A DNA stretch of 32,000 nucleotides, taken from Nostoc sp. PCC 7120 = FACHB-418 (lineage in GTDB: Bacteria > Cyanobacteriota > Cyanobacteriia > Cyanobacteriales > Nostocaceae). This document shows, one piece after another, positions 6,312 through 29,107 of the stretch. Position 1 is the first letter of the stretch, and each line of letters begins with the position of its first letter. Made by a program: the position numbers and the translations under genes. The stretch covers positions 660,001-692,000 of the forward strand of contig NC_003272.1 of the NCBI RefSeq assembly GCF_000009705.1. The letters run 5' to 3'. The notes under the pieces were generated by a model. The model did no database searches, was not told the DNA's origin, and worked only from the letters and a program-made list of their open reading frames with translations.

Positions 6312-6662
6312 CCCTTCCTTTTTACAAATTTTTCGATGATATTACACCCTTCAAAAGTTATATTTTTTATGAGTAATAGGTATTTTTTCATGCTTGGTCA
6401 GCCAATAGCTAATCACCCATTACTCATTACTTAACTCTACTATTTATAAATCACATAGAACGGCTATATACTGAGATAAGTCTTAATTTAAATATGCCTT
6501 GGGATAGTTGTAAATGCTTATAAGTAGAGTTAAATTCAGCCAGAGCAACTGTAGCTTTAAATTATTCAAGATTTTTATGTAAGATAATCTTAAATTGTTA
6601 AGACTCCTTACTGGAAATTAAACGTTACATTTATTAGGTGTTTAGCCAGAGGTTTAGCATCA

Positions 6663-8573: not shown

Positions 8574-8583
8574 AACCATCGTA

Positions 8584-8606
8584 GAGACGTTGCATTGCAA
8601 CGTCTC
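8584..8606. terminator. bidirectional hairpin terminator between convergent cphA2 and DAHP synthase genes
   Basis: GAGACGTTGCA / TGCAACGTCTC is a near-perfect palindrome. It lies 11 nt after the cphA2 stop and 13 nt after the DAHP synthase stop. Confidence 0.6.
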
Positions 8607-8618
8607 CCAAAAATTACA

Positions 8619-9828: not shown

Positions 9829-10143
9829 CTAGTTATGGAGAAATTTCCGTACTTGATACTCCCCAGATTCCACTAATTCATAATTATCCCCCACAGCTTG
9901 CCTAAACCTTTGTTCAATAGCCTCTAAATCTGCTGCTGGCATGGTTTTCCAGTGTTCTTTAGTTTCCCAACGAATGATGAAAATAACTTCTGTGGATTCT
10001 AGGGGATTAATCCAAACTTCTTTACCCAAAAATCCTGGATACTTGGCCAATGCTGCTGTCCAAATCTCTGCATCCTTTTGGATATAACTCTCTCGCAGGC
10101 TAGCTTCAACTTTAAACCTCAGAAATTCTATAACCACACCCAT
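9829..10143 (-). CDS. small ABM/Dabb-fold-like protein (cyanobacterial conserved hypothetical)
   Basis: 104 aa reading MGVVIEFLRFKVEASLRESYIQKDAEIWTAALAKYPGFLGKEVWINP. It resembles the antibiotic-biosynthesis-monooxygenase-like fold family. The assignment is from memory. Confidence 0.55.
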   Translation of the reverse strand: MGVVIEFLRFKVEASLRESYIQKDAEIWTAALAKYPGFLGKEVWINPLESTEVIFIIRWETKEHWKTMPAADLEAIEQRFRQAVGDNYELVESGEYQVRKFLHN

Positions 10144-10274
10144 TTATCCCTTGTGTTTGCCAATCTGCCAAAATAGAACTGTAGGCTAGAATAACTACGC
10201 TTCCAGCATAGCTTGATTGCATACACTCAGGAGCAAGGGTCGGCTGGTTTGAAATAAGGAATAAGGTAAAGAGT

Positions 10275-10598
10275 ATGGACAGCAACAATTGGTTGCAACA
10301 AATAATGATGCTTGGTATTGGTACAACTTCTTTGGTGGCGGAAAAACTCAAGGAGGTTAGTGATGAATTGGTCAAAGACGGTAAGCTTAATCCAGAGCAA
10401 GCCAAAGCTGTCATGGATGACATTGTACAGCAGTTAAAGACTGAGCAGGGAACATGGGATGCCCAAATGCAACGACAAATGCGAAATATGATGCAGGATT
10501 TAGGCGTGGCGCGTCAGTCGGAAGTGGATGAATTACGGGGGAGAATTGACCGTTTAGAACGTCAAGTGCGCGATTTAGAAAATAAGCTTTGGCGTTAG
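10275..10598 (+). CDS. phasin-like coiled-coil protein (COG3937-like)
   Basis: 107 aa. The helical N-terminal part (LGIGTTSLVAEKLKEVSDELVKDGK) and the C-terminal coiled coil (EVDELRGRIDRLERQVRDLENKL) are typical of phasin-like regulators. Unverified. Confidence 0.55.
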   Translation: MDSNNWLQQIMMLGIGTTSLVAEKLKEVSDELVKDGKLNPEQAKAVMDDIVQQLKTEQGTWDAQMQRQMRNMMQDLGVARQSEVDELRGRIDRLERQVRDLENKLWR

Positions 10599-10631
10599 GA
10601 TGTGCTTCTGATTTAAACTAATTGTGTCCTA

Positions 10632-11204
10632 TTGGTAATTTTCATTGCCAAACTACCTCAGTGGGGAGGGCTAATTTTGAAAGCAATTTTACTCAGCATA
10701 GGTTTGATGCTGGCCTGTGTTGTGGTTTTGGTATTGGCACAAGTGGGGAATAAACAGGACTCTGCTATTGCTGCTAATTTACCTCAAACTCCACTAGCCA
10801 CCATTAGCGTTACTGAAAACAATACTCCAATCAAGAAAAATATCATGTCTGAAGCCTCTAAGCCGCCTGTTACTACCGATTCTGGACTCAAATATGTGGA
10901 AATAGAAGAGGGAACTGGCGCGACTCCTAAAAGTGGACAAACCGTCGTAGTTCACTACACAGGTACTCTAGAAGATGGTACCAAGTTTGATAGCTCACGC
11001 GATCGCAATCGTCCCTTCAGCTTTACCATCGGCGTTGGACAAGTAATTAAAGGTTGGGATGAAGGACTTAGCACTATGAAAGTAGGTGGTCGTCGTCAAT
11101 TAATCATCCCTTCAGAATTGGGTTATGGCGCTCGTGGTGCTGGTGGGGTGATTCCACCTTACGCAACCCTGCTGTTTGATGTGGAATTGTTGGAAGTGAA
11201 GTAG
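10632..11204 (+). CDS. FKBP-type peptidyl-prolyl cis-trans isomerase with N-terminal membrane/signal segment
   Basis: Canonical FKBP core: VVVHYTGTLEDGTKFDSSRDRNRPFSFTIGVGQVIKGWDEGLSTMKVGGRRQLIIPSELGYG...LLFDVELLEV. The TTG start at 10632 is uncertain, and ATG 10707 is possible. Confidence 0.85.
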   Translation: MVIFIAKLPQWGGLILKAILLSIGLMLACVVVLVLAQVGNKQDSAIAANLPQTPLATISVTENNTPIKKNIMSEASKPPVTTDSGLKYVEIEEGTGATPKSGQTVVVHYTGTLEDGTKFDSSRDRNRPFSFTIGVGQVIKGWDEGLSTMKVGGRRQLIIPSELGYGARGAGGVIPPYATLLFDVELLEVK

Positions 11205-11210
11205 GGGAAT

Positions 11211-11272
11211 AGTCCATAGTCAATAGTCCACAGTCAAAGGTAAAAACTCATGACTGTTGACTGTTGACTGTC
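11211..11272. repeat. STRR heptamer repeats forming a long imperfect hairpin between convergent FKBP and dnaB genes
   Basis: The left arm AGTCCATAGTCAATAGTCCACAGTCAA pairs with the right arm TGACTGTTGACTGTTGACTGTC, about 18 of 22 positions including G-U pairs. It probably acts as a bidirectional terminator. Confidence 0.6.
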
Positions 11273-11283
11273 TTAATCATCAT

Positions 11284-13923
11284 TTAATAGCCTGATCTGG
11301 CTAAGTTTTTAAATTTGGTAAACTGTGGGTCAAATAGGAGTTTTACTGTACCTGTTGGGCCGTTGCGGTGTTTCGCTACAATGACTTCTGCCAGGCCGCG
11401 ATCTGGTGTATCACTGTTATAGTAATCGTCACGGTATAACATAATAACTAAATCCGCATCCTGCTCAATGGAGTTGTGAACAACAATGTTATTAGCAATA
11501 AAATTATGTAGCCCAGGAACTGTCAAATCAAACACTTCTTCCTCGCCACTATATTCAATTGAAACTATTTCATCCCAATAAACATCACTCTTGGCAAGAG
11601 TAAGCAATTCACTAGATTGAACAACTTCAGCAACTTTCAAAGCTCTTTCTCGACTCAAATTTGCTTTGTAAAGCGCCAAGCCACAATAAGATGTGCCAAT
11701 GTTTGAATGCAATTCTCTTGTTGTTAATTGCACAGATTGCATTGCAGGTACAACAATTTTTTTCCAAACATCTTTGGGGATTATATCTCTATTAGTATTG
11801 TGAATGCAATTTTCTAGATATTCAAAAATTTGTTGTAGTGAATTTAGTTTGTATTCTCCTACTGCTCCAACCTTTTTAATAAATAAATCAAGGTCAGGCT
11901 TACCAGTTATTTTTACATGATACTGATTTCTCCCCTTCCCCACTTGAGGCACTAGCTTGAGTGTCGCATTAATACCAAGCTTTAACAAAAGAGTTTGTAC
12001 ATCAACAGCTAATCTGTAACTACTAGTTGCATAATATGCAATAGGTCTTGGTTTTTTCCCTCCGACTAATTTAATTGAACCATCTGTACTCCACAGATGT
12101 CTAAGAAAGCAAGATATTAACTCTATTGGTTGTGAGAACAATTCTTGAGGGACAAATTTTTCGTAAGACCTTAAACCAAAAACACCAAGAGAGTCTAGCC
12201 ATTTTGCTACAGGATTTCTGAGATTACGAGTTAAGCGTTGTGTTGCAGACAAATAAACTTGATACCAGCTGCGTTCAGGGGAAATTCTTGGAGTAATTGC
12301 ATCCCCAAAAACTTCTTTTGCTAAGAAAAAAACATTCTCAGCTAAATCTATCTCTCTGGTAGTGTACTGTATGGCATGACGTGGCAATGTACAACCATCA
12401 CCAATTAAATGCCCTAATAATGCCACTTCAGCATAAGTCATGGTTTGTTTATCAAAACTGGGTATATGCCGTGGTAAACATAGATGTTGTCTAATACTTA
12501 ACTCATCTAATCTACGCCAGCCATGAATTGTCAGGAATTTGTGATTAGCTGTAGCACGAATTTTGCACCCCTTACGAGTTGTTAATGTAAATACAGGCTT
12601 TACACCTGTAGAAAAGGCATTGCTGACTATTGCTTTTTCTAATTTTAATGTTGCTTGATTTAAAGCCCAAATAGCAAAACCAGACTTACCGACTAACTCC
12701 CTAATTGGTATCTGTAAACCGCCCGGCGCTAAAGTTACTAAACTATCACCAGTTAGACAACCTGATTCTCTTAAGTCAGACAACATAGGACGCTTGTTGG
12801 TACGCGCTTCTACGCCACGACTCAGCTGAGATAGAGCTATTACAGGTACAGATAATTCTCTAGCTAAACCTTTGAGAGAACGGGTAATTTTAGATAACTC
12901 CTGTACGCGGTTATCTCCGCCTCCTTCCATTAATTGCAGATAATCTATCACTATCAAGCCTAGTTCTACACCCTGTTCGGCTTGTAATCTTCTAGCTTGA
13001 GAGCGCATTTGGGTGACGGTAATATTCGGCGTGTCATCAATAAAAATGGGCATTTCGGACAGCATACTAATCGCCCGGCTTAATGGTTCCCATTGTGTTT
13101 GACTGAGGCGACCACTCCGCAGATAGCCGCTTTCAATTTGGGCTTCACTAGCAAGTAAACGTTGTACCAGTTGCTCTTTGGACATTTCTAAACTGAAAAC
13201 AGCAACAGGTAGCTTCATCGTAGCCGCGATATTATTAGCTAGGTTTAGGCAAAATGCGGTTTTTCCCATTGACGGTCTTCCAGCGACGATGATTAAATCA
13301 GAACGCTGAAATCCACTAGTCATAGCGTCTAAATCATAAAAGCCGCAGGGAATACCAGGCAAGGCAATACCTTGATTGCGCTCCTCAATTTCTTGGAAGT
13401 TGTTAATTAAGGTGTCTGCAATGTGAACTAAACCTGATTGGGGACGTTCTTGAGTAACGCCAAAAACTTTCTGTTCTGCTTGGTCTAGTACTATGGGTAA
13501 TTCTTTTTCTGTCTCGTAACCGAGATGGACAATTTCATTGCCAGCTTTAATTAATTGCCGTCGCAGGTATTTTTCCATCACCAACCCTGCTAAGGCATCG
13601 ATATTCACAGCTGAGACTGTACGGTCTACCAAGGTGGCTAATTTGTTTCTACCACCAATGCGGGTCAGCAACTCATTATCAGTTAGCCAACTTGTGACTG
13701 ACAGCAAATCTGTAGGTTTACCTTGGGCGTGGAGACGCAGCGCAGCTTGATAGATATCTCTGTGGGCGCTAATATAAAAAGCTTCTGTAATAAGGACTTC
13801 GCTTACTCGACCAATCGCTTCTGGATCTAGTAGAATACCCCCCAAAATTGCTTCTTCTGCCTCGATATTTTGGGGTGGGAGGCGATTACTACCGTCGCCT
13901 TGAAAACTCAATTCTTCAGCCAT
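11284..13923 (-). CDS. dnaB: replicative DNA helicase DnaB, intein-containing precursor (879 aa)
   Basis: Has the DnaB N-domain, Walker A GRPSMGKT, Walker B IVIDYLQLM and the C-terminal motif KHRNGPTG. The extein total of 450 aa is interrupted after RESG. Confidence 0.95.
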   Translation of the reverse strand: MAEELSFQGDGSNRLPPQNIEAEEAILGGILLDPEAIGRVSEVLITEAFYISAHRDIYQAALRLHAQGKPTDLLSVTSWLTDNELLTRIGGRNKLATLVDRTVSAVNIDALAGLVMEKYLRRQLIKAGNEIVHLGYETEKELPIVLDQAEQKVFGVTQERPQSGLVHIADTLINNFQEIEERNQGIALPGIPCGFYDLDAMTSGFQRSDLIIVAGRPSMGKTAFCLNLANNIAATMKLPVAVFSLEMSKEQLVQRLLASEAQIESGYLRSGRLSQTQWEPLSRAISMLSEMPIFIDDTPNITVTQMRSQARRLQAEQGVELGLIVIDYLQLMEGGGDNRVQELSKITRSLKGLARELSVPVIALSQLSRGVEARTNKRPMLSDLRESGCLTGDSLVTLAPGGLQIPIRELVGKSGFAIWALNQATLKLEKAIVSNAFSTGVKPVFTLTTRKGCKIRATANHKFLTIHGWRRLDELSIRQHLCLPRHIPSFDKQTMTYAEVALLGHLIGDGCTLPRHAIQYTTREIDLAENVFFLAKEVFGDAITPRISPERSWYQVYLSATQRLTRNLRNPVAKWLDSLGVFGLRSYEKFVPQELFSQPIELISCFLRHLWSTDGSIKLVGGKKPRPIAYYATSSYRLAVDVQTLLLKLGINATLKLVPQVGKGRNQYHVKITGKPDLDLFIKKVGAVGEYKLNSLQQIFEYLENCIHNTNRDIIPKDVWKKIVVPAMQSVQLTTRELHSNIGTSYCGLALYKANLSRERALKVAEVVQSSELLTLAKSDVYWDEIVSIEYSGEEEVFDLTVPGLHNFIANNIVVHNSIEQDADLVIMLYRDDYYNSDTPDRGLAEVIVAKHRNGPTGTVKLLFDPQFTKFKNLARSGY
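11473..12759 (-). mobile_element. DnaB intein (429 aa, residues 389-817) with LAGLIDADG homing-endonuclease domain
   Basis: Splice junctions are RESG|CLTGDSLVTL (TGT at 12759-12757) and NNIVVHN|SIEQDAD (AAC at 11475-11473). Block B is ATANHKFLT. The two LAGLIDADG motifs are LLGHLIGDGC and FLRHLWSTDGS. Confidence 0.92.
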
Positions 13924-15942: not shown

Positions 15943-16173
15943 ATGACTACTCACTACAGATACACTTACACCAGTGTTTATCGTCAAACAGAAACTACAG
16001 TTAAGCAAATCGTAGATAGGATCCTCCGTTCTGGCAAAATGAGTCCTCAAGACCATGCTTTGCTAACATCTGCCGTTTTTAATCATCATGATATTGATGA
16101 ACAAGAACGTCGCCAAATTAATCGGATTTTTGACCATATTCAGACAGGGCAATTAAAGCTGATTAACTGGTAG
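15943..16173 (+). CDS. small hypothetical protein (76 aa) with Thr/Tyr-rich N-terminus
   Basis: AGGAG at 15933-15937 lies 5 nt before the ATG. The N-terminus reads MTTHYRYTYTSVYRQTETT, and the helical C-terminal part reads DEQERRQINRIFDHIQTGQLKLI. Confidence 0.6.
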   Translation: MTTHYRYTYTSVYRQTETTVKQIVDRILRSGKMSPQDHALLTSAVFNHHDIDEQERRQINRIFDHIQTGQLKLINW

Positions 16174-16348: not shown

Positions 16349-17545
16349 GTGAATCTACAGGCTAACAAATCCAGGCTAAAAGTTTCCATAGTTGTCAGCG
16401 ATTTATCCAGTGCTGGAGCAGGAAGATGGGGAGGCGGTTCTGTACGTTCCTTTCTGTTAGCTCAAGCACTGCAAAGGCTAAACTATCAAGTCGAAATTTT
16501 AGGATTTGTCTTTGGTGAAGCAGCAGTGTTTCCCCAATCAGAAATTCAGATAAATCAATTCATCGGTTATAATTATCCAAAATTTTTAGTTTCAGCCAAT
16601 CAACTCTTAAAAAGAATTGATGGTGATATTATTTATGCAATGCGGCCTAAACCTACAACCTTAGGTCTATCTTTATGGAAAAAAATCAGTACTCGTCAGC
16701 CAGTAATTTTAGATATAGATGATTGGGAACTAGGTTGGCATGGTGGAGAAAACTGGCAATATCGCCCTTCATTAAAACAACTTTATCGAGATATTTTCAA
16801 GCCGGATGGAGCATTACGCAATCCGGATCATCCTTTGTATTTAAAATTTCTAGAAGGAATTGCGCCAAAAGCTAATGTAGTTACGATTCATACTAAATTT
16901 TTACAAGAACGCTTTGGTGGTGTATACATACCTAATGGTAAAGATACGGATTTATTTAATCCTATTAACTACGATGCAGAAGAAAGCCGAGCTTGTTATG
17001 GGTTATCCGACTACAGAATTTTAATGTTTCCTGGCGCACCCAGACCATATAAAGGTGTGGAAGATGTGTTAATGGCGTTAGATATTCTCAATCAGCCTGA
17101 TTTGAGACTAGTGATTGTTGGCGGTAGCCCTTATGATGACTATGATGCTCAACTTAGAGAAAAATGGGGACGTTGGATTATCCAGTTACCAAAATCTCCA
17201 CCAACGGAAATGCCCAAAATTGTGGCAGCTGCTCACATTATCGTTGTTCCCCAAAGGAATACACCAGCAGCTTTGGCACAGTTCCCCTTGAAACTAACAG
17301 ATGGGATGGCGATGGCCAAGCCAATTCTAGCCACAAGAGTGGGGGATATTCCCGAAATCGTTGGAGAAACGGCTTATTTAGTTGAGCCGGCTTGTCCTGA
17401 TGAAATAGCCAGGCAAATTAAGTTGATATTTGCAGATTTGGATGGAGCGAGCGATCGCGGTCGCCAAGCTAGAATAAGATGTATAGAAAAGTACAGTATA
17501 TCGGCTATGGCGACTACCCTACAGTCAGTTATTGCTAATTTGTAA
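16349..17545 (+). CDS. glycosyltransferase, GT-B fold (family 4-like)
   Basis: 398 aa. It starts like a GT4 N-domain (KVSIVVSDLSSAGAGRWGG). The C-terminal domain reads FPGAPRPYKGVEDVL...VIVGG...PLKLTDGMAMAKPILATRVGDIPEIVGE. The start codon is GTG. Confidence 0.8.
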   Translation: MNLQANKSRLKVSIVVSDLSSAGAGRWGGGSVRSFLLAQALQRLNYQVEILGFVFGEAAVFPQSEIQINQFIGYNYPKFLVSANQLLKRIDGDIIYAMRPKPTTLGLSLWKKISTRQPVILDIDDWELGWHGGENWQYRPSLKQLYRDIFKPDGALRNPDHPLYLKFLEGIAPKANVVTIHTKFLQERFGGVYIPNGKDTDLFNPINYDAEESRACYGLSDYRILMFPGAPRPYKGVEDVLMALDILNQPDLRLVIVGGSPYDDYDAQLREKWGRWIIQLPKSPPTEMPKIVAAAHIIVVPQRNTPAALAQFPLKLTDGMAMAKPILATRVGDIPEIVGETAYLVEPACPDEIARQIKLIFADLDGASDRGRQARIRCIEKYSISAMATTLQSVIANL

Positions 17546-17652: not shown

Positions 17653-19893
17653 ATGCTTACCAGACGCATCTTACTAAAATTTGCGAAACCCTATCCAGGA
17701 TTAATTCTACTGACGATAATATTAGGATTCTCTGGAGCTTTATTTAATGGGATTAGTACAGCACTGATTGTACCAGTAATTTTAAGAATAGTAGGACAAC
17801 CAGTAGACTTAAAAGGCGCTCCGGGGTTGCTCAAAGCCATTATGACCCCATTCGATAATGTGCCAGAAAATTATCGGATTGCCGCAATGGCAGGAGCAAT
17901 CATCCTGACAATTGCCTTAAAAAACTTAGCCACATATACCAGCACGCTATCATCAAGTTCTCTAACTCGCAGACTTACTGCGGATATGCGAGAGGCAGGC
18001 ATCGATTTATTACTAAATATTGATATAGATTATTATGCCAAAACCAAAGTTGGTGATTTAATCAATCGTTTGGGAGGTGAAATTGGCCGTGCCGCTAGTT
18101 ATGTAGGCAATATCATCAGATTAGTTATTGTCAGCGTTACAATTTCCGTTTTTGTCTGTCTATTACTATCAATTTCTTGGCAATTAACTATCATGGCGAC
18201 AATCTTGCTGTCGCTAGTAACATTAGTCAATCAATTTGCAATTAGTCGTTCTCGTCAGTTTGGCAAGATATTGAGTGAAATGTCGAAAGCCTACTCCATA
18301 GCTGTGCTAGAAACTCTCAATGGCATTCGTCTTGTCAAGACTACAGCGAACGAAAGGAAAGAATTTAATAGAATTAAACGACTAATTCGTGAGCGCGAAT
18401 CCGCAGATTTTAAAGCTCAGATGAACTCCAACGCCATCACTCCCTTAAGTGAATTTTTGGGAGTTACATCTTTGTTAATAATTGTGCTGTTAAGTAAAAC
18501 TTTTTTCGCTGATCAAATTAGTACACTTTCGGCTGTTCTGTTAACATATTTACTAATATTATTACGTCTACTACCCCTAGTTTCTCAACTCAATAGTCTC
18601 CGTAGTAGCTTTGCTAGCATGAATGCTAGTGTAGACTCGGTAACTGAACTACTCAGATTAGATGATAAACCATTCTTAATAAATGGAAAAATTGCCTACA
18701 ACGGCTTAAAAACAGGGATTACGTTTAAATCTGTTTCCTTCACTTACCCTGGTCATGATAAACAAGTACTCAAAGATGTAACTTTAAAACTACCCCGTGG
18801 CACAACATTAGCATTGGTAGGAGGCTCAGGAGCAGGTAAATCTACCTTGGCAGACTTATTACCCAGATTTTATGACCCAACTGGTGGCTGTATTATTTTA
18901 GATGATACCGATTTGCGTGAGTTTGATATCACCTCTATCCGTAAGTGTATGGGTATCGTTAGCCAGGATACTTTTCTCTTCAATAATTCAGTGCGGAATA
19001 ATATTGCCTATGGTAAACAAGAAGCCACAGAAGAAGAGGTTGTAGCAGCTGCTAAACGGGCAAATGCCTACGAATTTATTAGTAAACTGCCCCAACAATT
19101 TGATACTATGATTGGCGATCGCGGTGTCATGTTATCGGGAGGACAAAGACAAAGATTAGCGATCGCTCGCGCTCTCTTACAAAACCCTGATATTCTGATT
19201 CTCGACGAAGCAACTAGCGCTTTAGACACCGTTTCGGAACGTTTGGTACAAGGAGCGCTAGAAGAACTCAGCCGCGACAGGACAACTCTAGTTATTGCTC
19301 ACCGTCTGTCTACAGTCCGCAAAGCCGACCAAATCGCTGTCTTGGAGCAAGGAAAAGTCGTAGAGGTGGGAACCCATGAAGAGCTATTACAAAAGGGTGG
19401 TTACTACTCACGCCTTTATGGAATGCAGTTTAGCAATAATGCTGAAACCACAAATAGAACCAATCAAAGCTTATTGCGAATTTCCCATGAAATCCGTACA
19501 CGCCTCCACTCCATGATTGGTGTCTTACGGCTGTTATTGGATGATGTTACAAACAATAACCAAGAACACCAAGAATTGATTGAAGACTCATACAAGTCAG
19601 CATTTAAAATTATCAATACTCTAGACATTTTTGAAGATAGTCTACAACAGCAAGTCTATTATTTATCTACGTCACTATTGGAGGATAATCAAAATAACAA
19701 TACCCTACTCGAACACCTGAAAAATATCAATGAATTTCGGATACAGTTCAACAATATATTAGTCTCTCTGCGGTCATTGACTGATAGCACAGGAGAGTTA
19801 GAACAAAGTGAGTATTTATTGTTAAAAGAATCTCTAAATGTATCGATGAATTTACTCGATTGTTTAGAAAATGTTGAAACAGGCATCTTCTAA
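17653..19893 (+). CDS. ABC exporter half-transporter (TMD-NBD, MsbA-like) with C-terminal HisKA/DHp-like extension
   Basis: Has a six-helix TMD, Walker A GGSGAGKST, signature LSGGQRQ, Walker B ILILDEATSALD and the H-loop IAHRLST. An extra ~150 aa follow the NBD. Confidence 0.9.
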   Translation: MLTRRILLKFAKPYPGLILLTIILGFSGALFNGISTALIVPVILRIVGQPVDLKGAPGLLKAIMTPFDNVPENYRIAAMAGAIILTIALKNLATYTSTLSSSSLTRRLTADMREAGIDLLLNIDIDYYAKTKVGDLINRLGGEIGRAASYVGNIIRLVIVSVTISVFVCLLLSISWQLTIMATILLSLVTLVNQFAISRSRQFGKILSEMSKAYSIAVLETLNGIRLVKTTANERKEFNRIKRLIRERESADFKAQMNSNAITPLSEFLGVTSLLIIVLLSKTFFADQISTLSAVLLTYLLILLRLLPLVSQLNSLRSSFASMNASVDSVTELLRLDDKPFLINGKIAYNGLKTGITFKSVSFTYPGHDKQVLKDVTLKLPRGTTLALVGGSGAGKSTLADLLPRFYDPTGGCIILDDTDLREFDITSIRKCMGIVSQDTFLFNNSVRNNIAYGKQEATEEEVVAAAKRANAYEFISKLPQQFDTMIGDRGVMLSGGQRQRLAIARALLQNPDILILDEATSALDTVSERLVQGALEELSRDRTTLVIAHRLSTVRKADQIAVLEQGKVVEVGTHEELLQKGGYYSRLYGMQFSNNAETTNRTNQSLLRISHEIRTRLHSMIGVLRLLLDDVTNNNQEHQELIEDSYKSAFKIINTLDIFEDSLQQQVYYLSTSLLEDNQNNNTLLEHLKNINEFRIQFNNILVSLRSLTDSTGELEQSEYLLLKESLNVSMNLLDCLENVETGIF
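19432..19893 (+). other. HisKA (DHp)-like domain appended to the ABC exporter; no HATPase_c domain
   Basis: LLRISHEIRTRLHSMIGVLRLLLDD...QELIEDSYKSAFKIINTLDIFEDSLQ parallels the histidine-kinase H-box consensus xSHELRTPLxxIxGxxxLL. The His codon is at 19486-19488. No N/G1/G2 boxes follow. Confidence 0.6.
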
Positions 19894-19927: not shown

Positions 19928-21130
19928 ATGAAAAATAAATATATTTTCTATAGCAGAATCATTTCCCAGAAACCAGATACAGCTCACGAAATTCATGACG
20001 TTCTTTGTGCTAACGGCGCAGCTAATTTAGGATATGCCTCTGTTTTAGTATATCCAGAAACTAAACGAGGTTCTGGGAATACATTAGATTTACTTTACCC
20101 TTTCCAACCGAAACAGCCAGATCAGAGTTTTGTAGATTTTTACGATGTGCAAGATAAGCTAAAAGTGGCATCTTTACCAATGCCCTGGCCGATTGATTGT
20201 GTAGGGGGTAAGTTTACAGCATCTAGTACAGTTGTAACCCGATATTATCTACCATTCCATCTCCTAAAATATACAAAAATTGTTCACACTAGAGACTGGA
20301 ATTTTGTCCAAGCAGCAATCAAAAACTGCATTCCTACTATCTACGAACGCCACTATTTTCAAAAGGAAAAAGTTCCCAAAGCCATTGCTGAAAGTCCATT
20401 TCTACAAGTTGCTGTCACCCAATCAGAAATTATAAGACAAAGTTTGATTGAACAGGGATTTCCCCCAGAAAAAGTTGTTTGGGTACATAACGGATTTGAT
20501 CAATCATTTTTATTACGACAATCGGAACAAGCTACAGCATGGCGCAAAGAATTACTCAAAGATGAACTTCAGTCGCTAGTAGTTTATTCTGGTGCTTTAT
20601 ACCCCTTTAAGGGCATTGATGTTTTAATTGATGCAGCCAAAGAATTACCACAAGTTCAGTTTGCCATTACAGGGGGTAAGACAGAACAAGTAACAGCTTA
20701 TCAACAATTGGCTAAAGATAAACAAGTAGAAAATGTCAAGTTTCTAGGTTGGATATTGCCACGCCAACGCTTAGTCAGCCTATTTCAAGCTGCTGATATT
20801 TTGGTTCATCCCCACTGCTCTGGCAAGTCTGCTAATTTCACTAATCCTGTGAAATTCTTCCAATATATGGCTTCTGGAACTCCCATAGTGATTACAGAAA
20901 TTCCTCCGTTAATGCCTTTTAAAGATATGCCTTTAGCTGCTGTATGGTGTGAACCGGATAATCCTTACCAACTGGCTAAAGCACTGAAGCAAGCATTAGA
21001 AATTTATCCGAGAAAAATAGAAGGTTACACAAATAATGTTGAATTGGCGAAGCCATTTTCTTGGGAAAATAGAGCCGAAAAAATTCTCAGTTACGTTGAT
21101 GAATCTTTCCGTCCACAACTCATAACTTAA
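19928..21130 (+). CDS. glycosyltransferase, GT-B fold (family 4-like)
   Basis: 400 aa. The C-terminal domain reads VVYSGALYPFKGIDVLIDAAKELPQVQFAITGG...FLGW...ADILVHP...PVKFFQYMASGTPIVITEIP. Confidence 0.75.
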   Translation: MKNKYIFYSRIISQKPDTAHEIHDVLCANGAANLGYASVLVYPETKRGSGNTLDLLYPFQPKQPDQSFVDFYDVQDKLKVASLPMPWPIDCVGGKFTASSTVVTRYYLPFHLLKYTKIVHTRDWNFVQAAIKNCIPTIYERHYFQKEKVPKAIAESPFLQVAVTQSEIIRQSLIEQGFPPEKVVWVHNGFDQSFLLRQSEQATAWRKELLKDELQSLVVYSGALYPFKGIDVLIDAAKELPQVQFAITGGKTEQVTAYQQLAKDKQVENVKFLGWILPRQRLVSLFQAADILVHPHCSGKSANFTNPVKFFQYMASGTPIVITEIPPLMPFKDMPLAAVWCEPDNPYQLAKALKQALEIYPRKIEGYTNNVELAKPFSWENRAEKILSYVDESFRPQLIT

Positions 21131-21152
21131 ATTTAAAATTAAATTATAAATA

Positions 21153-22127
21153 ATGAATATTGGCTCTATGGATATACAGAAAATTGGCATGATTACCAGC
21201 TACCGCAATCTGGCAAAAAGAGCAGATTGGTTGTGGCAACAAACACCCCAACAATTTGGTATTTGGCAAAATATTCAGATACAAGCACTGTCAGGAAAAC
21301 CAGATTTTCTGTTAATGTATCAATTTGATTTTCCTAAAGATAATCAGCAAACATCTTTGATAGATAAGCTAAGGCAAAAACTACAAAATCCACAAGTCAA
21401 TGTTGAATCCCTACTCAGAGATGTTCCCAAAGAAAAAATTATTTATCTATTACGTGAACCTCCCCTAGATGAGATTGTAGAGAAAAATAAACGCTATTAT
21501 CAAGAAGCAAAAAAGTATTGCGGTTATATTTCTGGCCCTGATGATTTTGCCCCTAAGCCTGATTATATGCCGGCAATTTGGTATCACAACAACTCATTTC
21601 GGGAACTAAATGAAATGCCTGTTCCCGAAAAAGTCTTTCCTTGCAGTTGGATAACTTCTGGTATTAGCCGGACTGTTAACCATCGTCGCCGATTAAAATT
21701 TGTGGAATTAATACAAGCTAGCGAAGTTAAGTGTGATGTATATGGACGCGACTTACCTATATGGGCAAAATCATTAGGAGAACTGGGTAACAAGTGGTAT
21801 GGAATGGCTCCATATTATTACAACTTATCAATTGAAAATTATGCCGACAATGATTGGTATGTGAGTGAAAAATTATGGGATGCTCTGTTGGCGTGGTGTT
21901 TGCCGATTTATTATGGTGGGCCAGCCGCAGATAAGCTATTACCCCCAGGCAGTTTTTTACGTTTACCCAGTTTGGATGAAAAAGGTATTGCTTACATTCA
22001 AGAAGTGACGGCTACCCCTGATGCTTGGTATGCTGCCAAGGATGCGATCGCCGAAGCTAGACAACTTATCTTACACAAGTTAAATTTACTCAACTGGTTG
22101 TCAGAATTCGTTACTCAATTTTCCTAG
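21153..22127 (+). CDS. GT10-like glycosyltransferase (alpha-1,3/4-fucosyltransferase-type motif)
   Basis: YNLSIENYADNDWYVSEKLWDALLAWCLPIYYGGPAADKLLPPGSFLRL aligns with the GT10 signature FxLSFENSxxxxYVTEKxxDAxxxxxIPIYWGxP...P.SF. The start is uncertain (ATG at 21153, 21168 or 21189). Confidence 0.7.
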   Translation: MNIGSMDIQKIGMITSYRNLAKRADWLWQQTPQQFGIWQNIQIQALSGKPDFLLMYQFDFPKDNQQTSLIDKLRQKLQNPQVNVESLLRDVPKEKIIYLLREPPLDEIVEKNKRYYQEAKKYCGYISGPDDFAPKPDYMPAIWYHNNSFRELNEMPVPEKVFPCSWITSGISRTVNHRRRLKFVELIQASEVKCDVYGRDLPIWAKSLGELGNKWYGMAPYYYNLSIENYADNDWYVSEKLWDALLAWCLPIYYGGPAADKLLPPGSFLRLPSLDEKGIAYIQEVTATPDAWYAAKDAIAEARQLILHKLNLLNWLSEFVTQFS

Positions 22128-22168
22128 ACAGTGTTTGATAAATCTTATTAATCAATGGTGAGTAATAT

Positions 22169-23164
22169 ATGGATGGTATTTGTACCCTTGCAAATGATCG
22201 AGTTTACGACCAGTTAATTGCTCTACTTAATAGTATTGAAGCAATTTACGGGACGCAAATGCCTGTTTGCATTTATCCCTATGACGACGAGACAACAGAA
22301 ATTGCTGCGGAAATTGCCCGTCGTCCTAATGTACAGCTTTATGATCATCAAGATTCAATCAAGCAATGGGATGAATTTGTTTGTCGTGTTTGGGATACTC
22401 ATCCTACAGCTAAAGCACATTGGCAGAAAATTAGTGAGGAAAAATATTTTCGAGTTGGTACTCATCGCCGTTTCTGTGCCTTTGATGGGCCTTTTGATCG
22501 CTTTGTCTATATGGATGCAGACACATTATTAATGAGTCCCTTAGATGCGATTTTTCAGCAATTAAATCACTATGATTGGGTAGTTCATGACTTCCAATAT
22601 AAGGATTTATCTCATGTTTATAATGTTAATTCTCCCAAATTAAAAGAGTTATTTACCAAAGAAAAATTACAAACAGAGATATTTTGTTCGGGATTTTACG
22701 CTGCTAAAAAAGATTTATTCACTGCTAAAAATCGAGAAACTATTATAAATAAACTGGGTCAGGGAGAGGCTGAGGTTCTTTATGATATGGCTCCTGACCA
22801 AACTGTACTTAATTATATGGTTATGCGGTTAGGCATTTCTAATTATAATTTCGCTCGCAGTTTATCCCATCAAGAAAAAACTGGTTGTTGTGTAACTTCT
22901 CCCCATTTTGAAGTGCGAGATAACATTTTATATGACAAAGGTAATCGACTCACATATATTCATTATATTGGGCTAAGATCAGCTTTATTTAGACAAGTTT
23001 GTGCTGGAGAAAATATTGACTTTCCTTATCGGGATGTGTTTTTGTATTACCGCTATCTGCATGAACCAAACCAATGCCCACAGTTCACAACAAAGCCAAA
23101 AGTTATCGAGACTTATCCGAGTCTAGGTAAAAGAATTTTAAAAAAATTAGGTTTAACAGTATGA
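22169..23164 (+). CDS. putative GT-A fold (GT8-like) glycosyltransferase, paralogue 1
   Basis: The N-terminus reads ICTLANDRVYDQLIALLNSI, and the DxD motif sits in FVYMDADTLL. It is clearly paralogous to the next ORF. Confidence 0.6.
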   Translation: MDGICTLANDRVYDQLIALLNSIEAIYGTQMPVCIYPYDDETTEIAAEIARRPNVQLYDHQDSIKQWDEFVCRVWDTHPTAKAHWQKISEEKYFRVGTHRRFCAFDGPFDRFVYMDADTLLMSPLDAIFQQLNHYDWVVHDFQYKDLSHVYNVNSPKLKELFTKEKLQTEIFCSGFYAAKKDLFTAKNRETIINKLGQGEAEVLYDMAPDQTVLNYMVMRLGISNYNFARSLSHQEKTGCCVTSPHFEVRDNILYDKGNRLTYIHYIGLRSALFRQVCAGENIDFPYRDVFLYYRYLHEPNQCPQFTTKPKVIETYPSLGKRILKKLGLTV

Positions 23165-23165
23165 G

Positions 23166-24101
23166 GTGAAAGATATGAGTCGGGGAATATATATTATAGC
23201 CAATGATAAAGTTATTGATCAGGCGATCGCACTACTAAATAGTATCCGATTACATGACGCAGATACGCCAGTTGTGATGATTCCCTATGATGATAATTAT
23301 CACAAGATAGCAGACATCCTTAAGCTAAACTATGGAGTTCAACTTTATGATGATTTAGCTTTTATAGACCAACTTTCTCAAAGATTACACGAAACTTTCG
23401 GTGGGCGCTTTTTTGCCCGTCCCAATCAATTTCGTAAGCAAGCCTGTTGGTTTGGACCTTTCGACGAATTTTTATATATTGATACTGATATTGTTGTCTT
23501 TGAAAAAATCATTGATAATCTCAACTACCTTGCAGAAGCAGATTTTATTTGCTGCGATTATCAACATTCTGGCGGTATAAAAAACGTTTTTACTTCTAAA
23601 GTTCTAGAGGATAAAGTTTTTACTGAGGCAGAAGTTAAAGATATATTTAATGGCGGTTTTTGGGGTTCTAAGAAAAACTTAATCTCGGCAGATGATTTAT
23701 TTGCCACTTTTAGCGAGTGTGCAGCACATCCCGAATATTTTGACTTTTCAGAAAAGACTTCTGATCAACCAATCATTAATTATATGTTGCTCAAGCGCAT
23801 TCAGCGCCGCTTCAATATTGTGCGCCGGGAAGGTAAAGCACCAGGTAATTGGGCTGGTTCTTCTCATTTCCAAACTCAGGGTAACTTAGTATTTGATCCT
23901 CATATTAATCAACCCCTGCAATATCTGCATTGGGCTGGTATTCGCATTCAACCAGGCTGTCCCTATTGGGAAATATGGGAACATTATCGAAATCTGAATC
24001 CCCATTTACCTGCATTAACAATACCTATACCAGCAAAACAAAGCCAGTGGGAAAAAACCTTAAACCGCATCAAAACTCAATTACGACAGCTTACAAAGTA
24101 G
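23166..24101 (+). CDS. putative GT-A fold (GT8-like) glycosyltransferase, paralogue 2
   Basis: The N-terminus reads IYIIANDKVIDQAIALLNSI, and the DxD motif sits in FLYIDTDIVV. GTG 23166 abuts the upstream stop (TGA 23162-23164). ATG 23175, with GAGG at 23163-23166, is the more likely start. Confidence 0.6.
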   Translation: MKDMSRGIYIIANDKVIDQAIALLNSIRLHDADTPVVMIPYDDNYHKIADILKLNYGVQLYDDLAFIDQLSQRLHETFGGRFFARPNQFRKQACWFGPFDEFLYIDTDIVVFEKIIDNLNYLAEADFICCDYQHSGGIKNVFTSKVLEDKVFTEAEVKDIFNGGFWGSKKNLISADDLFATFSECAAHPEYFDFSEKTSDQPIINYMLLKRIQRRFNIVRREGKAPGNWAGSSHFQTQGNLVFDPHINQPLQYLHWAGIRIQPGCPYWEIWEHYRNLNPHLPALTIPIPAKQSQWEKTLNRIKTQLRQLTK

Positions 24102-24720: not shown

Positions 24721-25728
24721 TTACTTAGGTAGTATTGAGTTGATTATTTTAAACATACGCTGACTCTTTAGTCTAATATATCTTCTGATAAATAATGCAG
24801 TTTTTTGAATCTCAGTCATTCCTAACCAATTTTCATATTCAGGAAAAACATAGTTGTTAAAAAAGTTAATCCAGTGCTGAGTAACTTTTGCTTCACTAAA
24901 TTCTTGTCCTCGTTCTTTTCCATTTTGAACCATTGACAAATATATTTCTGAATTACTTTTTAATTGCTTTACAGCCTCAATTATTTCACTCAATGAATTT
25001 ACGCTCAAAAAATCTAATTCTGACTTTTTGATAGCCACAAAAGCGGATTCTGGTGCTAAAATACCTACAACTCCAGCATTCCAACAGTTTACTAACTTGC
25101 TGGCTGGCTTGTGTGTGTGAGTCTGTTTATCAAAACTACGCACTGCAATAATAATATCTATACTGCTATAGTCATTCCATTTGCTTTGATCAAAAATTGG
25201 ATACCATTGACAGTCTAATTCCTCTATTACCTTAATCCATTGGTCAGAGTTGAATTCATGTGCCAAGTTACTTCTTGAACCCATAAAAGCAATATTTTTT
25301 ACAGTAGAACCTCGCTCTTTTGACCTTGGGATTAAACCTATTTGGGGCCAATGAGGAATATAATAAGGATTCCAAAGTTTGTTTTGCTGATCTTGAAATC
25401 GAACAGGATTATGAACAATATGTAAATATGCTGATGGATGAAATTCTCGATCCCCCTGTGCGCAAATTAACATTGTTTTACCCAAATAGGGATATTTATT
25501 ACTGAGAGTATCTCTATCAGCAATTAATATTCCTCCTTCTGGTACATAGTCTATCAGTTCACAAGAAAAACCACTTCTCTTAAGCTGAAGATACGTCGTT
25601 AAAATCCAAGACGTAAAATTACCAGATAATAATTTCCGAGCTACTGAAATTTGATCCCAGCATAGGTCATTTTGTAATTTTAACTGTTTCAAACTTCCTT
25701 TGGGAGCATAAAAGTAAATGGTTTTCAT
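24721..25728 (-). CDS. orphan hypothetical protein (335 aa), possibly glycosyltransferase-like
   Basis: An intact, visibly AT-rich ORF bracketed by the two IS remnants. The segment HKPASKLVNCWNAGVVGILAPESAF is reminiscent of a GT-B C-domain nucleotide-sugar site. I recognise no family. Confidence 0.6.
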   Translation of the reverse strand: MKTIYFYAPKGSLKQLKLQNDLCWDQISVARKLLSGNFTSWILTTYLQLKRSGFSCELIDYVPEGGILIADRDTLSNKYPYLGKTMLICAQGDREFHPSAYLHIVHNPVRFQDQQNKLWNPYYIPHWPQIGLIPRSKERGSTVKNIAFMGSRSNLAHEFNSDQWIKVIEELDCQWYPIFDQSKWNDYSSIDIIIAVRSFDKQTHTHKPASKLVNCWNAGVVGILAPESAFVAIKKSELDFLSVNSLSEIIEAVKQLKSNSEIYLSMVQNGKERGQEFSEAKVTQHWINFFNNYVFPEYENWLGMTEIQKTALFIRRYIRLKSQRMFKIINSILPK

Positions 25729-25827: not shown

Positions 25828-26524
25828 TTAACGTGAGTTCGACGGGTTAATTTAGGTGAAGAAAAAAGCTGAGACTGAAATAAGAAGAAAAATTAAAGGA
25901 TGTCTCAGCTATGTCCTACACGTACAGGAGAAATTACAGGCATAAGCTTCATCGATTCTACGCCAATCGAAGTTTGTCATAGATGTAGCGCCCACGCAAA
26001 TAAGGTATTTAAAGGATTAGTGGAATGGGGGAAGAATTCTGTAGGGTGGCACTATGGATTTAAACTGCATTTAGTTATTAATGACAAAGGAGAATTACTG
26101 GCATTCAAACTAACGAGTGCAAATACCGATGACCGAAAACCAGTTCCAGATATGACTCAAGATTTGATTGGTAAACTGTTTGGTGACAGAGGATATATTT
26201 CACAAAAACTTTTTGAGGAGTTATATGAGCGGGGGTTAGAGTTAGTTACCAAATCTAAAAAGAACATGAAAAACCGCTTGGTTAAACTCATTGATAAAAT
26301 TCTGTTACGCAAGCGTGCAGTCATTGAGTCGGTTAATGACCACCTGAAAAACCTGTGTCAAATTGAACATTCTCGCCATCGCAGCGTTTTCAACTTTTTG
26401 GTCAACTTAATGGCTGGTTTAGCTGCCTACACTTATTTGCCTCAGAAACCCTCGCTTGATATTTATCCCAAAGGCTTACCTGCTCTACTTACTGCTGTTT
26501 TTTAGTTCGTCGAACTCACGTTAA
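25828..26524 (+). mobile_element. defective IS982-family insertion sequence (~0.7 kb, 5'-deleted transposase)
   Basis: The inverted termini are TTAACGTGAGTTCGACG (25828-25844) and CGTCGAACTCACGTTAA (26508-26524). The element is about 300 bp shorter than typical family members. Confidence 0.75.
25900..26505 (+). CDS. IS982-family DDE transposase, N-terminally truncated (201 aa)
   Basis: Motifs seen are GISFIDSTPIEVC (D1), GWHYGFKLHLVINDKGELLAF, FGDRGYIS (D2) and [28 protein letters not shown] (E). It lacks the ~90 N-terminal residues of full-length family members, so it is likely non-functional. Confidence 0.75.
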   Translation: MSQLCPTRTGEITGISFIDSTPIEVCHRCSAHANKVFKGLVEWGKNSVGWHYGFKLHLVINDKGELLAFKLTSANTDDRKPVPDMTQDLIGKLFGDRGYISQKLFEELYERGLELVTKSKKNMKNRLVKLIDKILLRKRAVIESVNDHLKNLCQIEHSRHRSVFNFLVNLMAGLAAYTYLPQKPSLDIYPKGLPALLTAVF

Positions 26525-27328: not shown

Positions 27329-29107
27329 TTAATTTTTTGCCTGGGATTCATCAAAAAATCCAAAAGATGTTGCTTGAGGTAAAATAGCGGCAACCCCTTC
27401 CCTAGATAAATCTGTCAGCAAACCGATCGCCACATTGAATATGCGATTTGGTTGGAGGTCATCTTTCACCAAAGACCACAAGCGTTGAACTTCTTCTGTG
27501 TGCAAGCGATCATCTTCTGTAAGCGCTAGCACCAACTGGCGGCGGAGAAATTGACCTTCATCAGACAAGAGAAATTGCAAACCCATTCTGGCTGTGGGTA
27601 ATACATCAAAATTGTTATCACTGCGAGCGATCGCAATCAAATTTTCCAAGCGTTGCCACTGAAATCTACCATCTTTGAACAGCACATTCAGCAACCGCCT
27701 TCTCAATTCCGGTGATTCTCCAGTTAGTAACCGTCTGGCTACGTAAGGATAACCCACATCCACAATTTTAAAATTGCGATTGAGACTCAGTGCAATCCCT
27801 TCTTGTGTCACCAGAGAACGAATAATTAAGGCAAACTTCGCCGGGACTCGAAATGGATACTCATACATCAGTTCCGAGAACTGATCTGTGATGGTTTTAA
27901 AGTTAAAATCGCTGACATTTTTACCAATGGCATTTCCTAGCACTGTTTCCAATGCCGGAATAATGGGGGCAATATTGGTATCGGCAGTCAGAAAGCCTAA
28001 ATTAACAAAATCTAAGGCTAAATCACTATAGTCTTTGTTGACTAGATGCACTAGTGCATCTACCAAACGTTCTTTACTGTTTTCTTCCAACTGATCCATC
28101 ATGCCAAAGTCGATGTAAGCCATACGACCGTCAGGCATGGCAAACAAATTACCTGGATGAGGATCGGCGTGGAAAAAGCCATATTCCAACAACTGCTGCA
28201 AGCCTGAGGTGACACCAATACTGATAATCGCTTCTGGGTCTAAACCAGCTTTGCGAATACTGTCAGTATCTGTGAGCTTAAAGCCGTTAATCCACTCTAG
28301 AGTTAGAACCCGACTACTGGTAAAACGCCAATAAATACTTGGGACTTTTACTTGGGTATCATTGCGGAAGTTGTGAGCAAATTTTTCCGCGTTACGACCT
28401 TCATTGAGGTAGTCAATCTCCTCAAATAACTTAGTGCCGAACTCATCCACAATCAAAGTTAAATCATGACCAAGATTGAGTGGTAGCCAAGGTGCTAACC
28501 AACTAGCAGTCCAACGCATGAGATAAAGATCAAGAGTGAGAGTGGGGCGCAGATGAGGGCGTTGCACCTTCACCGCCACTTCCTCACCACTAAGTAAGCG
28601 TCCTCGGTAGACTTGACCTAAACTAGCTGCTGCAACTGGAGTTGGGGAAAGCTCACTATATATATCTGATATGGGTCTATCCAACTCTGATTCAATAATG
28701 TGATAAGCGATCGCATTATCAAAAGCTGGCAATTGGTCTTGCAGCTTGATGAGTTCTTCTAGGAAGTCCTTACGTATTAGGTCTGGTCTAGTGGAGAGAG
28801 CCTGACCGACCTTAATAAATGTAGGGCCCAAACGGGTAAGTAGTTCTCGCAACTGGGTAGCTCGTTTTCCCTTGTTCTGCTCTACTTGATTTTGCCATTC
28901 ATCCCACTTCAAACCCAAAACAAACATGGCAAAAGACCAAGTTATTTTGAATAGCCGTCCCCATGCTAGCCAGGGACGAAAACGATAGTAACGAGCAATC
29001 GCATCGGGATTGTAGCGCTTTAGCTGACCAGGTTGATACTGACCCACGCCTTTGTCTGCCTCTTCTTCTGGGAAATTTACAGTGTCCTTTTGTGTGTTGA
29101 CCCGCAA
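27329..29107 (-). CDS. ABC1/UbiB-family atypical protein kinase
   Basis: Motifs seen are GPTFIKVGQALSTRPDL, PVAAASLGQVYRGRL, VAVKVQRP, FHADPHPGNL and AYIDFGMM. The start is uncertain: TTG 29107 in the track, with GTG 29050 possible. Confidence 0.88.
   Translation of the reverse strand: MRVNTQKDTVNFPEEEADKGVGQYQPGQLKRYNPDAIARYYRFRPWLAWGRLFKITWSFAMFVLGLKWDEWQNQVEQNKGKRATQLRELLTRLGPTFIKVGQALSTRPDLIRKDFLEELIKLQDQLPAFDNAIAYHIIESELDRPISDIYSELSPTPVAAASLGQVYRGRLLSGEEVAVKVQRPHLRPTLTLDLYLMRWTASWLAPWLPLNLGHDLTLIVDEFGTKLFEEIDYLNEGRNAEKFAHNFRNDTQVKVPSIYWRFTSSRVLTLEWINGFKLTDTDSIRKAGLDPEAIISIGVTSGLQQLLEYGFFHADPHPGNLFAMPDGRMAYIDFGMMDQLEENSKERLVDALVHLVNKDYSDLALDFVNLGFLTADTNIAPIIPALETVLGNAIGKNVSDFNFKTITDQFSELMYEYPFRVPAKFALIIRSLVTQEGIALSLNRNFKIVDVGYPYVARRLLTGESPELRRRLLNVLFKDGRFQWQRLENLIAIARSDNNFDVLPTARMGLQFLLSDEGQFLRRQLVLALTEDDRLHTEEVQRLWSLVKDDLQPNRIFNVAIGLLTDLSREGVAAILPQATSFGFFDESQAKN

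Follow-up and report, generated by a model that had tools for sequence, protein, structure and literature searches.

ABC exporters of the MsbA/PglK/HepA type, which flip lipid-linked glycans or lipid A, consist of a transmembrane domain (TMD) followed by a nucleotide-binding domain (NBD) that has all of the ATPase motifs, and their chains end shortly after the NBD, none of them having a tail that resembles the DHp domain of histidine kinases. To our knowledge, exporters for lipid-linked glycans have generally been described as unregulated, their output being set by gene expression. The gene considered here, alr0583 of Nostoc sp. PCC 7120 (FACHB-418), encodes a half-size ABC exporter with the same TMD-NBD core and the same motifs, but the 746-residue protein continues beyond the NBD for about 150 residues, whose ancestor was the DHp (HisKA) domain of a histidine kinase of the hybrid type and which have undergone tandem duplication. 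It lies on the plus strand at 17653..19893 of the window, by which we mean the whole stretch of 32,000 nucleotides of contig NC_003272.1 that was analyzed; position 1 of the window is position 660001 of the chromosome, and the coordinates given below are those of the window unless a locus in another genome is named.

Several transporters are known to have elements beyond the NBD or a connection with signaling proteins. Importers of the MalK/MetN type have C-terminal regulatory domains past the NBD, which are β-rich and unrelated to HisKA. In BceAB-BceS, an ABC transporter is physically coupled to two-component signaling, but the transporter is of a different ABC type and the kinase is separate and complete, whereas Alr0583 contains only a fragment of a kinase, covalently fused. 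The C-terminal helices of Atm1 and the “zipper helices” of TmrAB are closer in position, being extra elements past the NBD that contact the dimer counterpart and limit the separation of the NBDs (PMC8694623), but they are single short helices unrelated to HisKA, whereas the tail of Alr0583 is a four-helix unit of 150 residues with a two-component origin. Among cyanobacterial ABC proteins with a signaling domain, a fusion of ComFB, a c-di-NMP receptor family, with an ABC ATPase has been noted in Limnothrix sp. P13C2, in a single sentence of a survey of ComFB proteins (PMC12448109). That paper does not describe pseudo-DHp hairpins after ComFB, and the Nostocales proteins have no ComFB domain.

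The closest relatives of the first hairpin of the tail are the DHp domains of hybrid kinases of the GacS/BarA/TorS/ArcB type (7n0e, 7z8n; RetS, 6dk7), as can be seen by comparing ISHEIRTRLHSMIGVL in Alr0583 with MSHEIRTPLNGILGF in GacS. These kinases autophosphorylate and carry HATPase_c, usually together with REC and Hpt domains, after the DHp, whereas Alr0583 has no catalytic domain and has Arg or Gln in place of the Pro at H+5, counting from the phospho-acceptor His. In real kinases of the HisKA family, the H-box face contacts both the receiver domain and the CA domain. A DHp of the HisKA type whose function is independent of phosphorylation is found in DivL of Caulobacter crescentus, which has Tyr550 in place of His, with the rest of the H-box and the docking face conserved, and which has neither kinase nor phosphatase activity; DivL binds DivK~P on its response-regulator docking face, an interaction that requires Arg553 at H+3, and the Y550H form binds DivK~P equally well, so that His and Tyr are interchangeable for partner binding in that protein (PMC4211667). 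The tail of Alr0583 resembles the DHp of DivL in that its His can be Tyr while the remainder of the H-box, including the Arg at H+3, is kept. However, DivL is a canonical homodimer with CA and PAS domains and no transporter fusion, whereas Alr0583 has a tandemly duplicated hairpin and no CA domain, and His and Tyr alternate between species. In its proposed action the tail comes closest to the DHp of DivL or to the C-terminal tethers of NBDs, while being a member of neither group.

The NBD and the tail are joined by a variable linker (residues 594–604; 19432..19464, plus strand, as are all of the segments that follow). Hairpin 1 (residues 605–674; 19465..19674) is a HisKA-like DHp hairpin with a full H-box face and contains the nominal phospho-acceptor, His612 (codon CAT, 19486..19488), in the motif RISHEIRT. 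A short and poorly conserved connector (residues 675–679; 19675..19689) leads to hairpin 2 (residues 680–746; 19690..19890), which lacks the polar face of the H-box, and the open reading frame (ORF) is closed by a TAA stop codon at 19891–19893. The Pfam HisKA model (PF00512) matched residues 610–657 over profile positions 9–57 of 66. The score rises from 24.7 bits with the full-length protein to 28.0 bits (E = 2.4e-6) with the isolated tail, and as the gathering score of the model is 26.9 bits, the match is marginal for this one sequence. However, HisKA was matched individually by 30 of 30 family tails at E ≤ 0.01 (best E = 1.9e-15), and when 1.84 billion proteins were searched exhaustively with HMMER, the best domain-checked matches from outside the family were true kinases with HisKA and HATPase_c (P0141, E = 6.6e-7 library-wide). 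Among solved structures, a profile of the tail came closest to the DHp domains of GacS (7n0e_A, E = 9e-5; 7z8n) and RetS (6dk7), and among NCBIfam models to the DHp regions of the hybrid kinases TorS, HrmK, LuxQ, ArcB, and BarA. The similarity is therefore not an accident of coiled-coil composition, and by ancestry the tail belongs to the HisKA superfamily. The preliminary description of this DNA, made from the letters alone, had proposed a HisKA hairpin that includes His612, and in this it was correct.

It had further stated that the protein has no ATPase domain of the kinase type, which agrees with the finding that no HATPase_c match was obtained with Pfam even at E ≤ 10 and that the protein ends 134 residues past His612. 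Hpt (PF01627) was likewise not matched by the tail at E ≤ 10, and neither a PAS sensor domain nor a CA domain is present in Alr0583 according to Pfam. Weak matches to CsgF (22.8 bits, below its cutoff), Med11, AATF, and PilB3_C were dismissed as low-complexity or helical noise. We refer to the tail as a pseudo-DHp because two features that define a functional DHp are absent: its phospho-acceptor position is not conserved, and no CA domain accompanies it. The automatic UniRef name “histidine kinase” that several orthologues carry is misleading.

The second helical hairpin of the preliminary description is present but is not an unrelated element. When profiles of the two hairpins were compared with hhalign, they aligned at 99.3% (E = 9e-21) over 62 gapless columns in a set of 41 orthologues, and removal of P0120, the orthologue with an intact second H-box, changed this only to 99.1% (E = 6e-19). 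Pairwise BLAST gave no more than an out-of-register match of 18.9 bits, so that the repeat is visible by profile-profile comparison alone; on this comparison, hairpin 2 is recognized as a degenerate tandem duplicate of hairpin 1.

Helices were predicted at approximately residues 605–629, 636–674, 680–710, and 718–745 in both AlphaFold runs, the first two forming the antiparallel two-helix hairpin expected of HisKA with a predicted local distance difference test score (pLDDT) of 86–95 in the model of the tail. As a whole, the tail-only model is a compact four-helix unit with a pLDDT of 87.1 and a predicted template modeling score (pTM) of 0.80, a value that for a monomer indicates a defined packing of all four helices. 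A Foldseek comparison of this model with the Protein Data Bank gave no match at E ≤ 0.001 and returned only single-chain up-down four-helix bundles, generic or designed, the best in geometry being 6egc, a designed hairpin homodimer rebuilt as one chain (template modeling (TM) score 0.77/0.80); these matches therefore support the topology only and say nothing on function. The same model is a monomeric four-helix bundle, an architecture that Hpt domains also have, again with generic matches of TM score up to 0.80. Hairpins 1 and 2 are thus predicted, in a monomer-only model that is compatible with a swapped dimer, to pack against each other as an intramolecular four-helix pseudo-dimer and not as the canonical homodimeric bundle of a DHp. 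The full-length model has a pLDDT of 60.6, falling below 50 at residues 675–682 around the connector, and a pTM of 0.41; it was not used as a Foldseek query because of this low confidence.

The conservation of the tail was assessed as the mean frequency of the major residue in Alr0583 and 119 close homologues (120 sequences). By this measure the TMD scores 0.86 and the NBD 0.90, and the first and second helices of hairpin 1 score 0.88 and 0.81, respectively, so that hairpin 1 is as constrained as the pump itself, whereas the linker before it (0.57), the segment between the hairpins (residues 669–688; 0.50), and hairpin 2 (0.67–0.70) are more variable. The H-box face of hairpin 1 reads R609-x-S611-[H/Y]612-E613-x-R615-T616-x-L618-N619-S620-M621-x-G623, and most of its positions are nearly fixed: Arg609, Glu613, and Gly623 are present in 100% of the sequences, Arg615 in 99%, Asn619 and Ser620 in 98%, and Ser611 in 96%, and position 616 (H+4) is Thr in 95% and Asn or Ser in the remainder. 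Hairpin 2 retains the hydrophobic pattern and has lost the polar face and thus serves as an internal control, from which it follows that structure alone does not account for the conservation of hairpin 1. The exposed H-box face of hairpin 1 is therefore under strong purifying selection.

Two local departures from the family pattern may be recorded. Residue 619 (H+7; 19507–19509) is His in PCC 7120 and in its closest relative, Nostoc parmelioides (L005), which have RLHSMIG where 98% of the homologues have Asn (RLNSMIG). Some Nostoc orthologues contain a basic insertion of about 24 residues (DRPNKNxxQxKIxKAxRLxSKKF) between the NBD and hairpin 1, which gives proteins of 772–773 residues (P0021, P0050, P0077, P0085, P0103, and others).

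In contrast to its neighbors, position 612 is variable, being His in 107 and Tyr in 13 of the 120 sequences. The architecture is encoded in 199 GTDB species genomes, and among the best 80 loci of these 199, on which the lineages and residue counts for species genomes are based, 57 have His, 18 Tyr, and 1 Asn, with Gln in one further locus that was missed by the pattern. Mapped by Fitch parsimony on a tree built from the TMD and NBD only, the residue has undergone at least 11 independent changes, with His at the root of the Nostocales; outside the Nostocales, Tyr is commoner and most relatives have Tyr or Phe. His at this position is therefore exchangeable with Tyr. The combination that characterizes DivL, Tyr in place of His with the docking face kept, thus occurs in about one-quarter of the Nostocales species and in most of the other cyanobacterial relatives, although Alr0583 itself keeps His. 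The preliminary description had made a phospho-acceptor role for His612 depend on conservation of the residue among orthologues; since the residue is not conserved, an obligate role in phosphotransfer is refuted on those terms, and the idea of a phosphorelay through the tail is weakened.

The fusion is neither rare nor restricted to a single form. Full-length proteins of this architecture make up more than 100 clusters at 90% identity, and its intact state in the 199 species genomes rules out an artifact of gene fusion or frameshift. The best 80 loci come essentially from heterocystous cyanobacteria alone, and every ORF recovered among them is fused to an ABC NBD. Tails of the Nostocales type, with 48–73% identity to that of Alr0583, were also found in three metagenome-assembled genomes (L008, L066, and L077) labeled Leptolyngbyaceae, Acetobacteraceae, and Chroococcales, which are probably errors of binning or labeling and not true taxonomic spread. 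A search of the available literature gave no paper that mentions alr0583 and no described ABC/HisKA fusion in heterocystous cyanobacteria, in keeping with the earlier statement that no characterized example is known; the fusion is a widely conserved variant architecture for which we found no description.

Outside the Nostocales, the module is present on the same ABC subfamily in three formats. Tails of a single hairpin, about 75–98 residues in length (P0249, P0261, P0266, P0269, P0272, P0274, P0285, and P0292; locus L086), occur in the non-heterocystous Coleofasciculus, Trichocoleus desertorum, and FACHB-472, with mostly Tyr but also His or Phe at the phospho-acceptor position; at the profile level they align with the first and second hairpins of the Nostocales proteins at 99.8% (E = 2e-29) and 99.4% (E = 2.5e-21), respectively. 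Other proteins have two intact hairpins, in which the residues at the two His positions are Tyr and Tyr (P0127, P0201, and P0227), Tyr and His (P0271), or His and His (P0120 and P0277). In the third format, found in marine metagenome-assembled genomes (P0162 and P0191–P0199), a ComFB domain (PF10719) is inserted before the hairpins, giving proteins of 851–959 residues with the order ABC exporter, ComFB, pseudo-DHp hairpin, and degenerate hairpin, in which the His position is occupied by Tyr (LSYEVRT or LSYEGR); these proteins appear to be of the same kind as the Limnothrix fusion. In addition, P0291 from the Synechococcales (611 residues) is an exporter without any tail. The series suggests a progression from one hairpin to a tandem pair and then to a pair with a degenerate second copy. 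Two shorter proteins, P0134 (223 residues), which lacks an ABC part and consists of two hairpins in tandem whose His position is occupied by Lys or Glu, and P0150 (249 residues; ComFB and the tail with no NBD), may be stand-alone versions of the module or fragments of longer genes.

The reading that we tentatively prefer, at somewhat less than even probability, is that the tail serves as a pseudo-DHp with a docking or regulatory role, through which a partner, with a receiver domain as the most plausible candidate, is coupled to closure of the NBDs. In this proposal the tail would be comparable to the DHp of DivL and would have no need of phosphorylation. The partner would dock on the H-box face, which is conserved and exposed, and would most probably be a receiver domain, perhaps preferably a phosphorylated one, with a kinase as the alternative. 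Docking directly beneath the NBDs would favor or hinder their closure, and a two-component signal would in this way either tune glycan export or be informed of the state of the pump. In the ancestral forms with a single hairpin, the module would also tether the two half-transporters. The equivalent of DivL Arg553 in Alr0583 is Arg615 at H+3, which is conserved in 99% of the homologues, and the insertion of ComFB in the sister clade fits the C-terminal region as a site of regulatory input.

A more specific version, which we hold to be rather unlikely as it stands, is that the bundle beneath the NBD dimer acts in the style of DivL as the receptor of a receiver-domain protein in its phosphorylated state, or pairs as a heteromer with the DHp of a kinase, that a two-component pathway switches the exporter post-translationally or receives the state of the pump by this route, and that ComFB feeds the same switch in the sister clade. 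If true, this would connect an ABC exporter directly to two-component and second-messenger signaling by a route that is new. More generally, the presence of a signaling-derived domain on this ATPase in about 200 cyanobacterial species, in several modular versions, suggests direct post-translational control of the export of envelope components or exopolysaccharide. The anatomy of the tail is unusual in its tandem pseudo-dimer, in the toggling between His and Tyr within a frozen H-box, and in the modular relatives with ComFB, and the family can be regarded as a natural experiment on the role that a DHp domain takes on when separated from the kinase it came from. The toggling parallels DivL, and if “reverse” signaling like that of DivL applies here, such signaling would be more widespread than the alphaproteobacterial cell-cycle case. 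Since PCC 7120 is a genetically tractable model strain, these ideas are directly testable.

Several points weigh against a docking role. No response regulator or histidine kinase gene is present in the 32-kb window or within 10 kb of the exporter in the six other genomes inspected, and the neighboring genes in these genomes yielded no partner for the tail; the absence of a nearby partner gene, which weakens every signaling model, is its main weakness. It is equally conceivable that the conserved polar face contacts the NBD of the same protein, and DivL keeps CA and PAS domains that Alr0583 lacks. The intramolecular bundle is a monomer-only prediction from a shallow alignment of 30 sequences and is compatible with a swapped dimer, and the tail cannot be placed relative to the NBDs because the confidence of the full-length model is too low.

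The best surviving alternative, unlikely but still to be taken seriously, is that the tail is a purely structural tether or clamp that keeps the two NBDs of the homodimer in proximity or stabilizes the protein, with no part in signaling. Such a role has precedent in the C-terminal helices that set the separation of the NBDs and stabilize the dimer in yeast Atm1 and TmrAB (PMC8694623), and it accords with the dispensability of His612 and with the lack of partner genes nearby in the neighborhoods inspected. The preliminary description had suggested that the tail could clamp the NBD dimer, and the single-hairpin relatives give this idea indirect support, as their tails can form a four-helix bundle only across the homodimer; the tandem bundle, however, is predicted to be intramolecular, and the duplication would then have removed the tether between protomers. 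A tether also leaves unexplained why exposed polar residues of the H-box are conserved at 95–100% while hairpin 2 has drifted (0.67–0.70 as compared with 0.88), and why a ComFB sensor domain has been inserted at the same place in the sister clade.

It is improbable that the tail is a genuine phosphotransfer module of the Hpt or Spo0B type, in which His612 would receive its phosphoryl group from a kinase acting in trans, or from a response regulator by back-transfer, and would pass it on, in those species that keep His. Alr0583 and about 75% of the Nostocales species do have the His, the adjacent Glu, and a complete H-box, the parsimony reconstruction has His at the root of the order, and a monomeric four-helix bundle is the architecture of Hpt. 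However, at least 11 independent events have put Tyr, Gln, or Asn in place of the His of orthologues that are otherwise highly conserved, most relatives outside the Nostocales have Tyr or Phe, the tail has no Hpt profile match at E ≤ 10, and there is neither a CA domain nor a kinase or response-regulator gene nearby in the neighborhoods inspected.

There is little to recommend a phosphatase of response regulators of the ExxT type, in which the Thr or Asn at H+4 would dephosphorylate a receiver domain with no need for the His. The phosphatase activity of histidine kinases usually depends also on the CA domain or the nucleotide state, and Alr0583 has no CA domain. The Glu at H+1 and the Thr/Asn at H+4 are the kinase and phosphatase residues of HisKA, Thr or Asn being required for phosphatase activity in HisKA kinases (PMC3510030), and in the present family Glu613 is invariant and all 120 sequences have Thr, Asn, or Ser at position 616. 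Yet DivL has the same motif and stabilizes DivK~P with no phosphatase activity (PMC4211667), and no partner gene lies close to the exporter in the neighborhoods inspected. Equally hard to credit is auto-regulation or scaffolding, in which the H-box face would pack on the protein's own NBD, mimicking the DHp-CA contact that the same face makes in kinases, or would recruit the glycosyltransferases of the operon; the tail does always stand beside an ABC NBD inside glycosyltransferase clusters, but P0134 and P0150, possibly fragments, may exist without an NBD.

The ORF at 17653..19893 was assigned to alr0583 because the published coordinates of Alr0582 (676349–677545) and Alr0584 (679928–681130) coincide with the window ORFs 16349..17545 and 19928..21130 (PMC2211374), and its product is identical in sequence to BAB72541.1. 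As the preliminary description had it, a complete TMD-NBD exporter precedes the tail. The TMD (residues 1–340; 17653..18672, plus strand), with the type IV/ABCB-like exporter fold, was matched by Pfam ABC_membrane at residues 71–304, and the NBD (residues 341–593; 18673..19431, plus strand) by ABC_tran at residues 373–522 (E = 7e-34). The Walker A motif (GGSGAGKST), the signature (LSGGQRQR), the Walker B-Glu (ILILDEATSALD), and the H-loop (AHRLST) are all intact in Alr0583 and invariant across the exporter family, so that the protein has both of the domains and all four of the ATPase motifs of a type IV (ABCB/MsbA-like) exporter. The solved bacterial homodimers closest to the core are MsbA (E = 1e-93) and Sav1866 (E = 6e-90). 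Judged by its motifs, the core is a catalytically intact half-size exporter of the MsbA/HepA-like kind. The best NCBIfam model, HepA_fam_ABC, scores 586 bits over residues 5–593 and ends at residue 593, the last of the NBD; as this is below the cutoff of 725 bits for the HepA equivalog (NF045513), Alr0583 is a paralogue of HepA and not HepA itself, which we take to be encoded at another locus, alr2835.

The substrate that is exported or flipped is most likely a glycoconjugate, since the gene sits in a glycosyltransferase operon. In PCC 7120 the cluster begins with alr0582 (16349..17545, plus strand), a glycosyltransferase of family GT4 (Pfam Glycos_transf_1 and Glyco_trans_1_4), and continues after alr0583 with alr0584–alr0587 (19928..24101, plus strand), which Pfam identifies as GT4 (alr0584, 19928..21130), GT10-like (alr0585), and Mannosyl_trans3/GT8-like (alr0586 and alr0587) proteins; it should be noted that the names alr0585–alr0587 are numbers given by position and were not taken from a source. 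A gap of 107 bp separates alr0582 from alr0583, and the junctions downstream of alr0583 range from a 1-bp overlap to a gap of 41 bp. No terminator-like site was found in the intergenic gaps of the cluster, the sole plus-strand match (21887–21907) lying inside alr0585. The arrangement, including the position of alr0582, is kept in distant Nostocales, and alr0583 is thus a member of a conserved glycosyltransferase operon, in line with the context of glycoconjugate export proposed for it earlier.

In other Nostocales the head of the cluster has one or two extra genes (a GT2 gene, with a GT4 or an unannotated gene in addition; 6741–8638 in locus L001 and 6416–8559 in locus L003), in place of which PCC 7120 has only a 76-residue ORF without a family match (15943–16173, plus strand); the operon is therefore shorter in this strain. 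On the 5′ side the cluster is preceded by dnaB, rplI, and gloB. An intein that includes a homing-endonuclease domain of the LAGLIDADG type interrupts the dnaB gene (11284–13923, minus strand; Pfam matches, Intein_splicing and LAGLIDADG_3), whose orthologue in L001 is longer (1145 residues), with Intein_splicing and DnaB_C each matched twice. Farther away, a cyanophycinase-like Peptidase_S51 gene (4868–5749, minus strand) lies near a gene for an ATP-grasp protein of 636 residues (6663–8573, plus strand), the two resembling a second cyanophycin gene pair of the cphA2/cphB2 kind. On the 3′ side, at a distance of about 1.8 kb from the glycosyltransferase cluster, a DDE transposase gene (DDE_Tnp_1_3; 25900–26505, plus strand), separated from the cluster by an unannotated minus-strand ORF (24721..25728), breaks the synteny with an ABC1-kinase gene (27329–29107) that is seen in other Nostocales.

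In locus L085, the exporter of the ComFB type (10001–12622) adjoins two GT2 genes and a CsgG-like gene. The cluster around P0227, the exporter with a tandem Tyr/Tyr tail (locus L087, 15171–19055), also has sulfotransferases and a polysaccharide pyruvyl transferase, which hints that the polymer exported there is a sulfated or pyruvylated polysaccharide.

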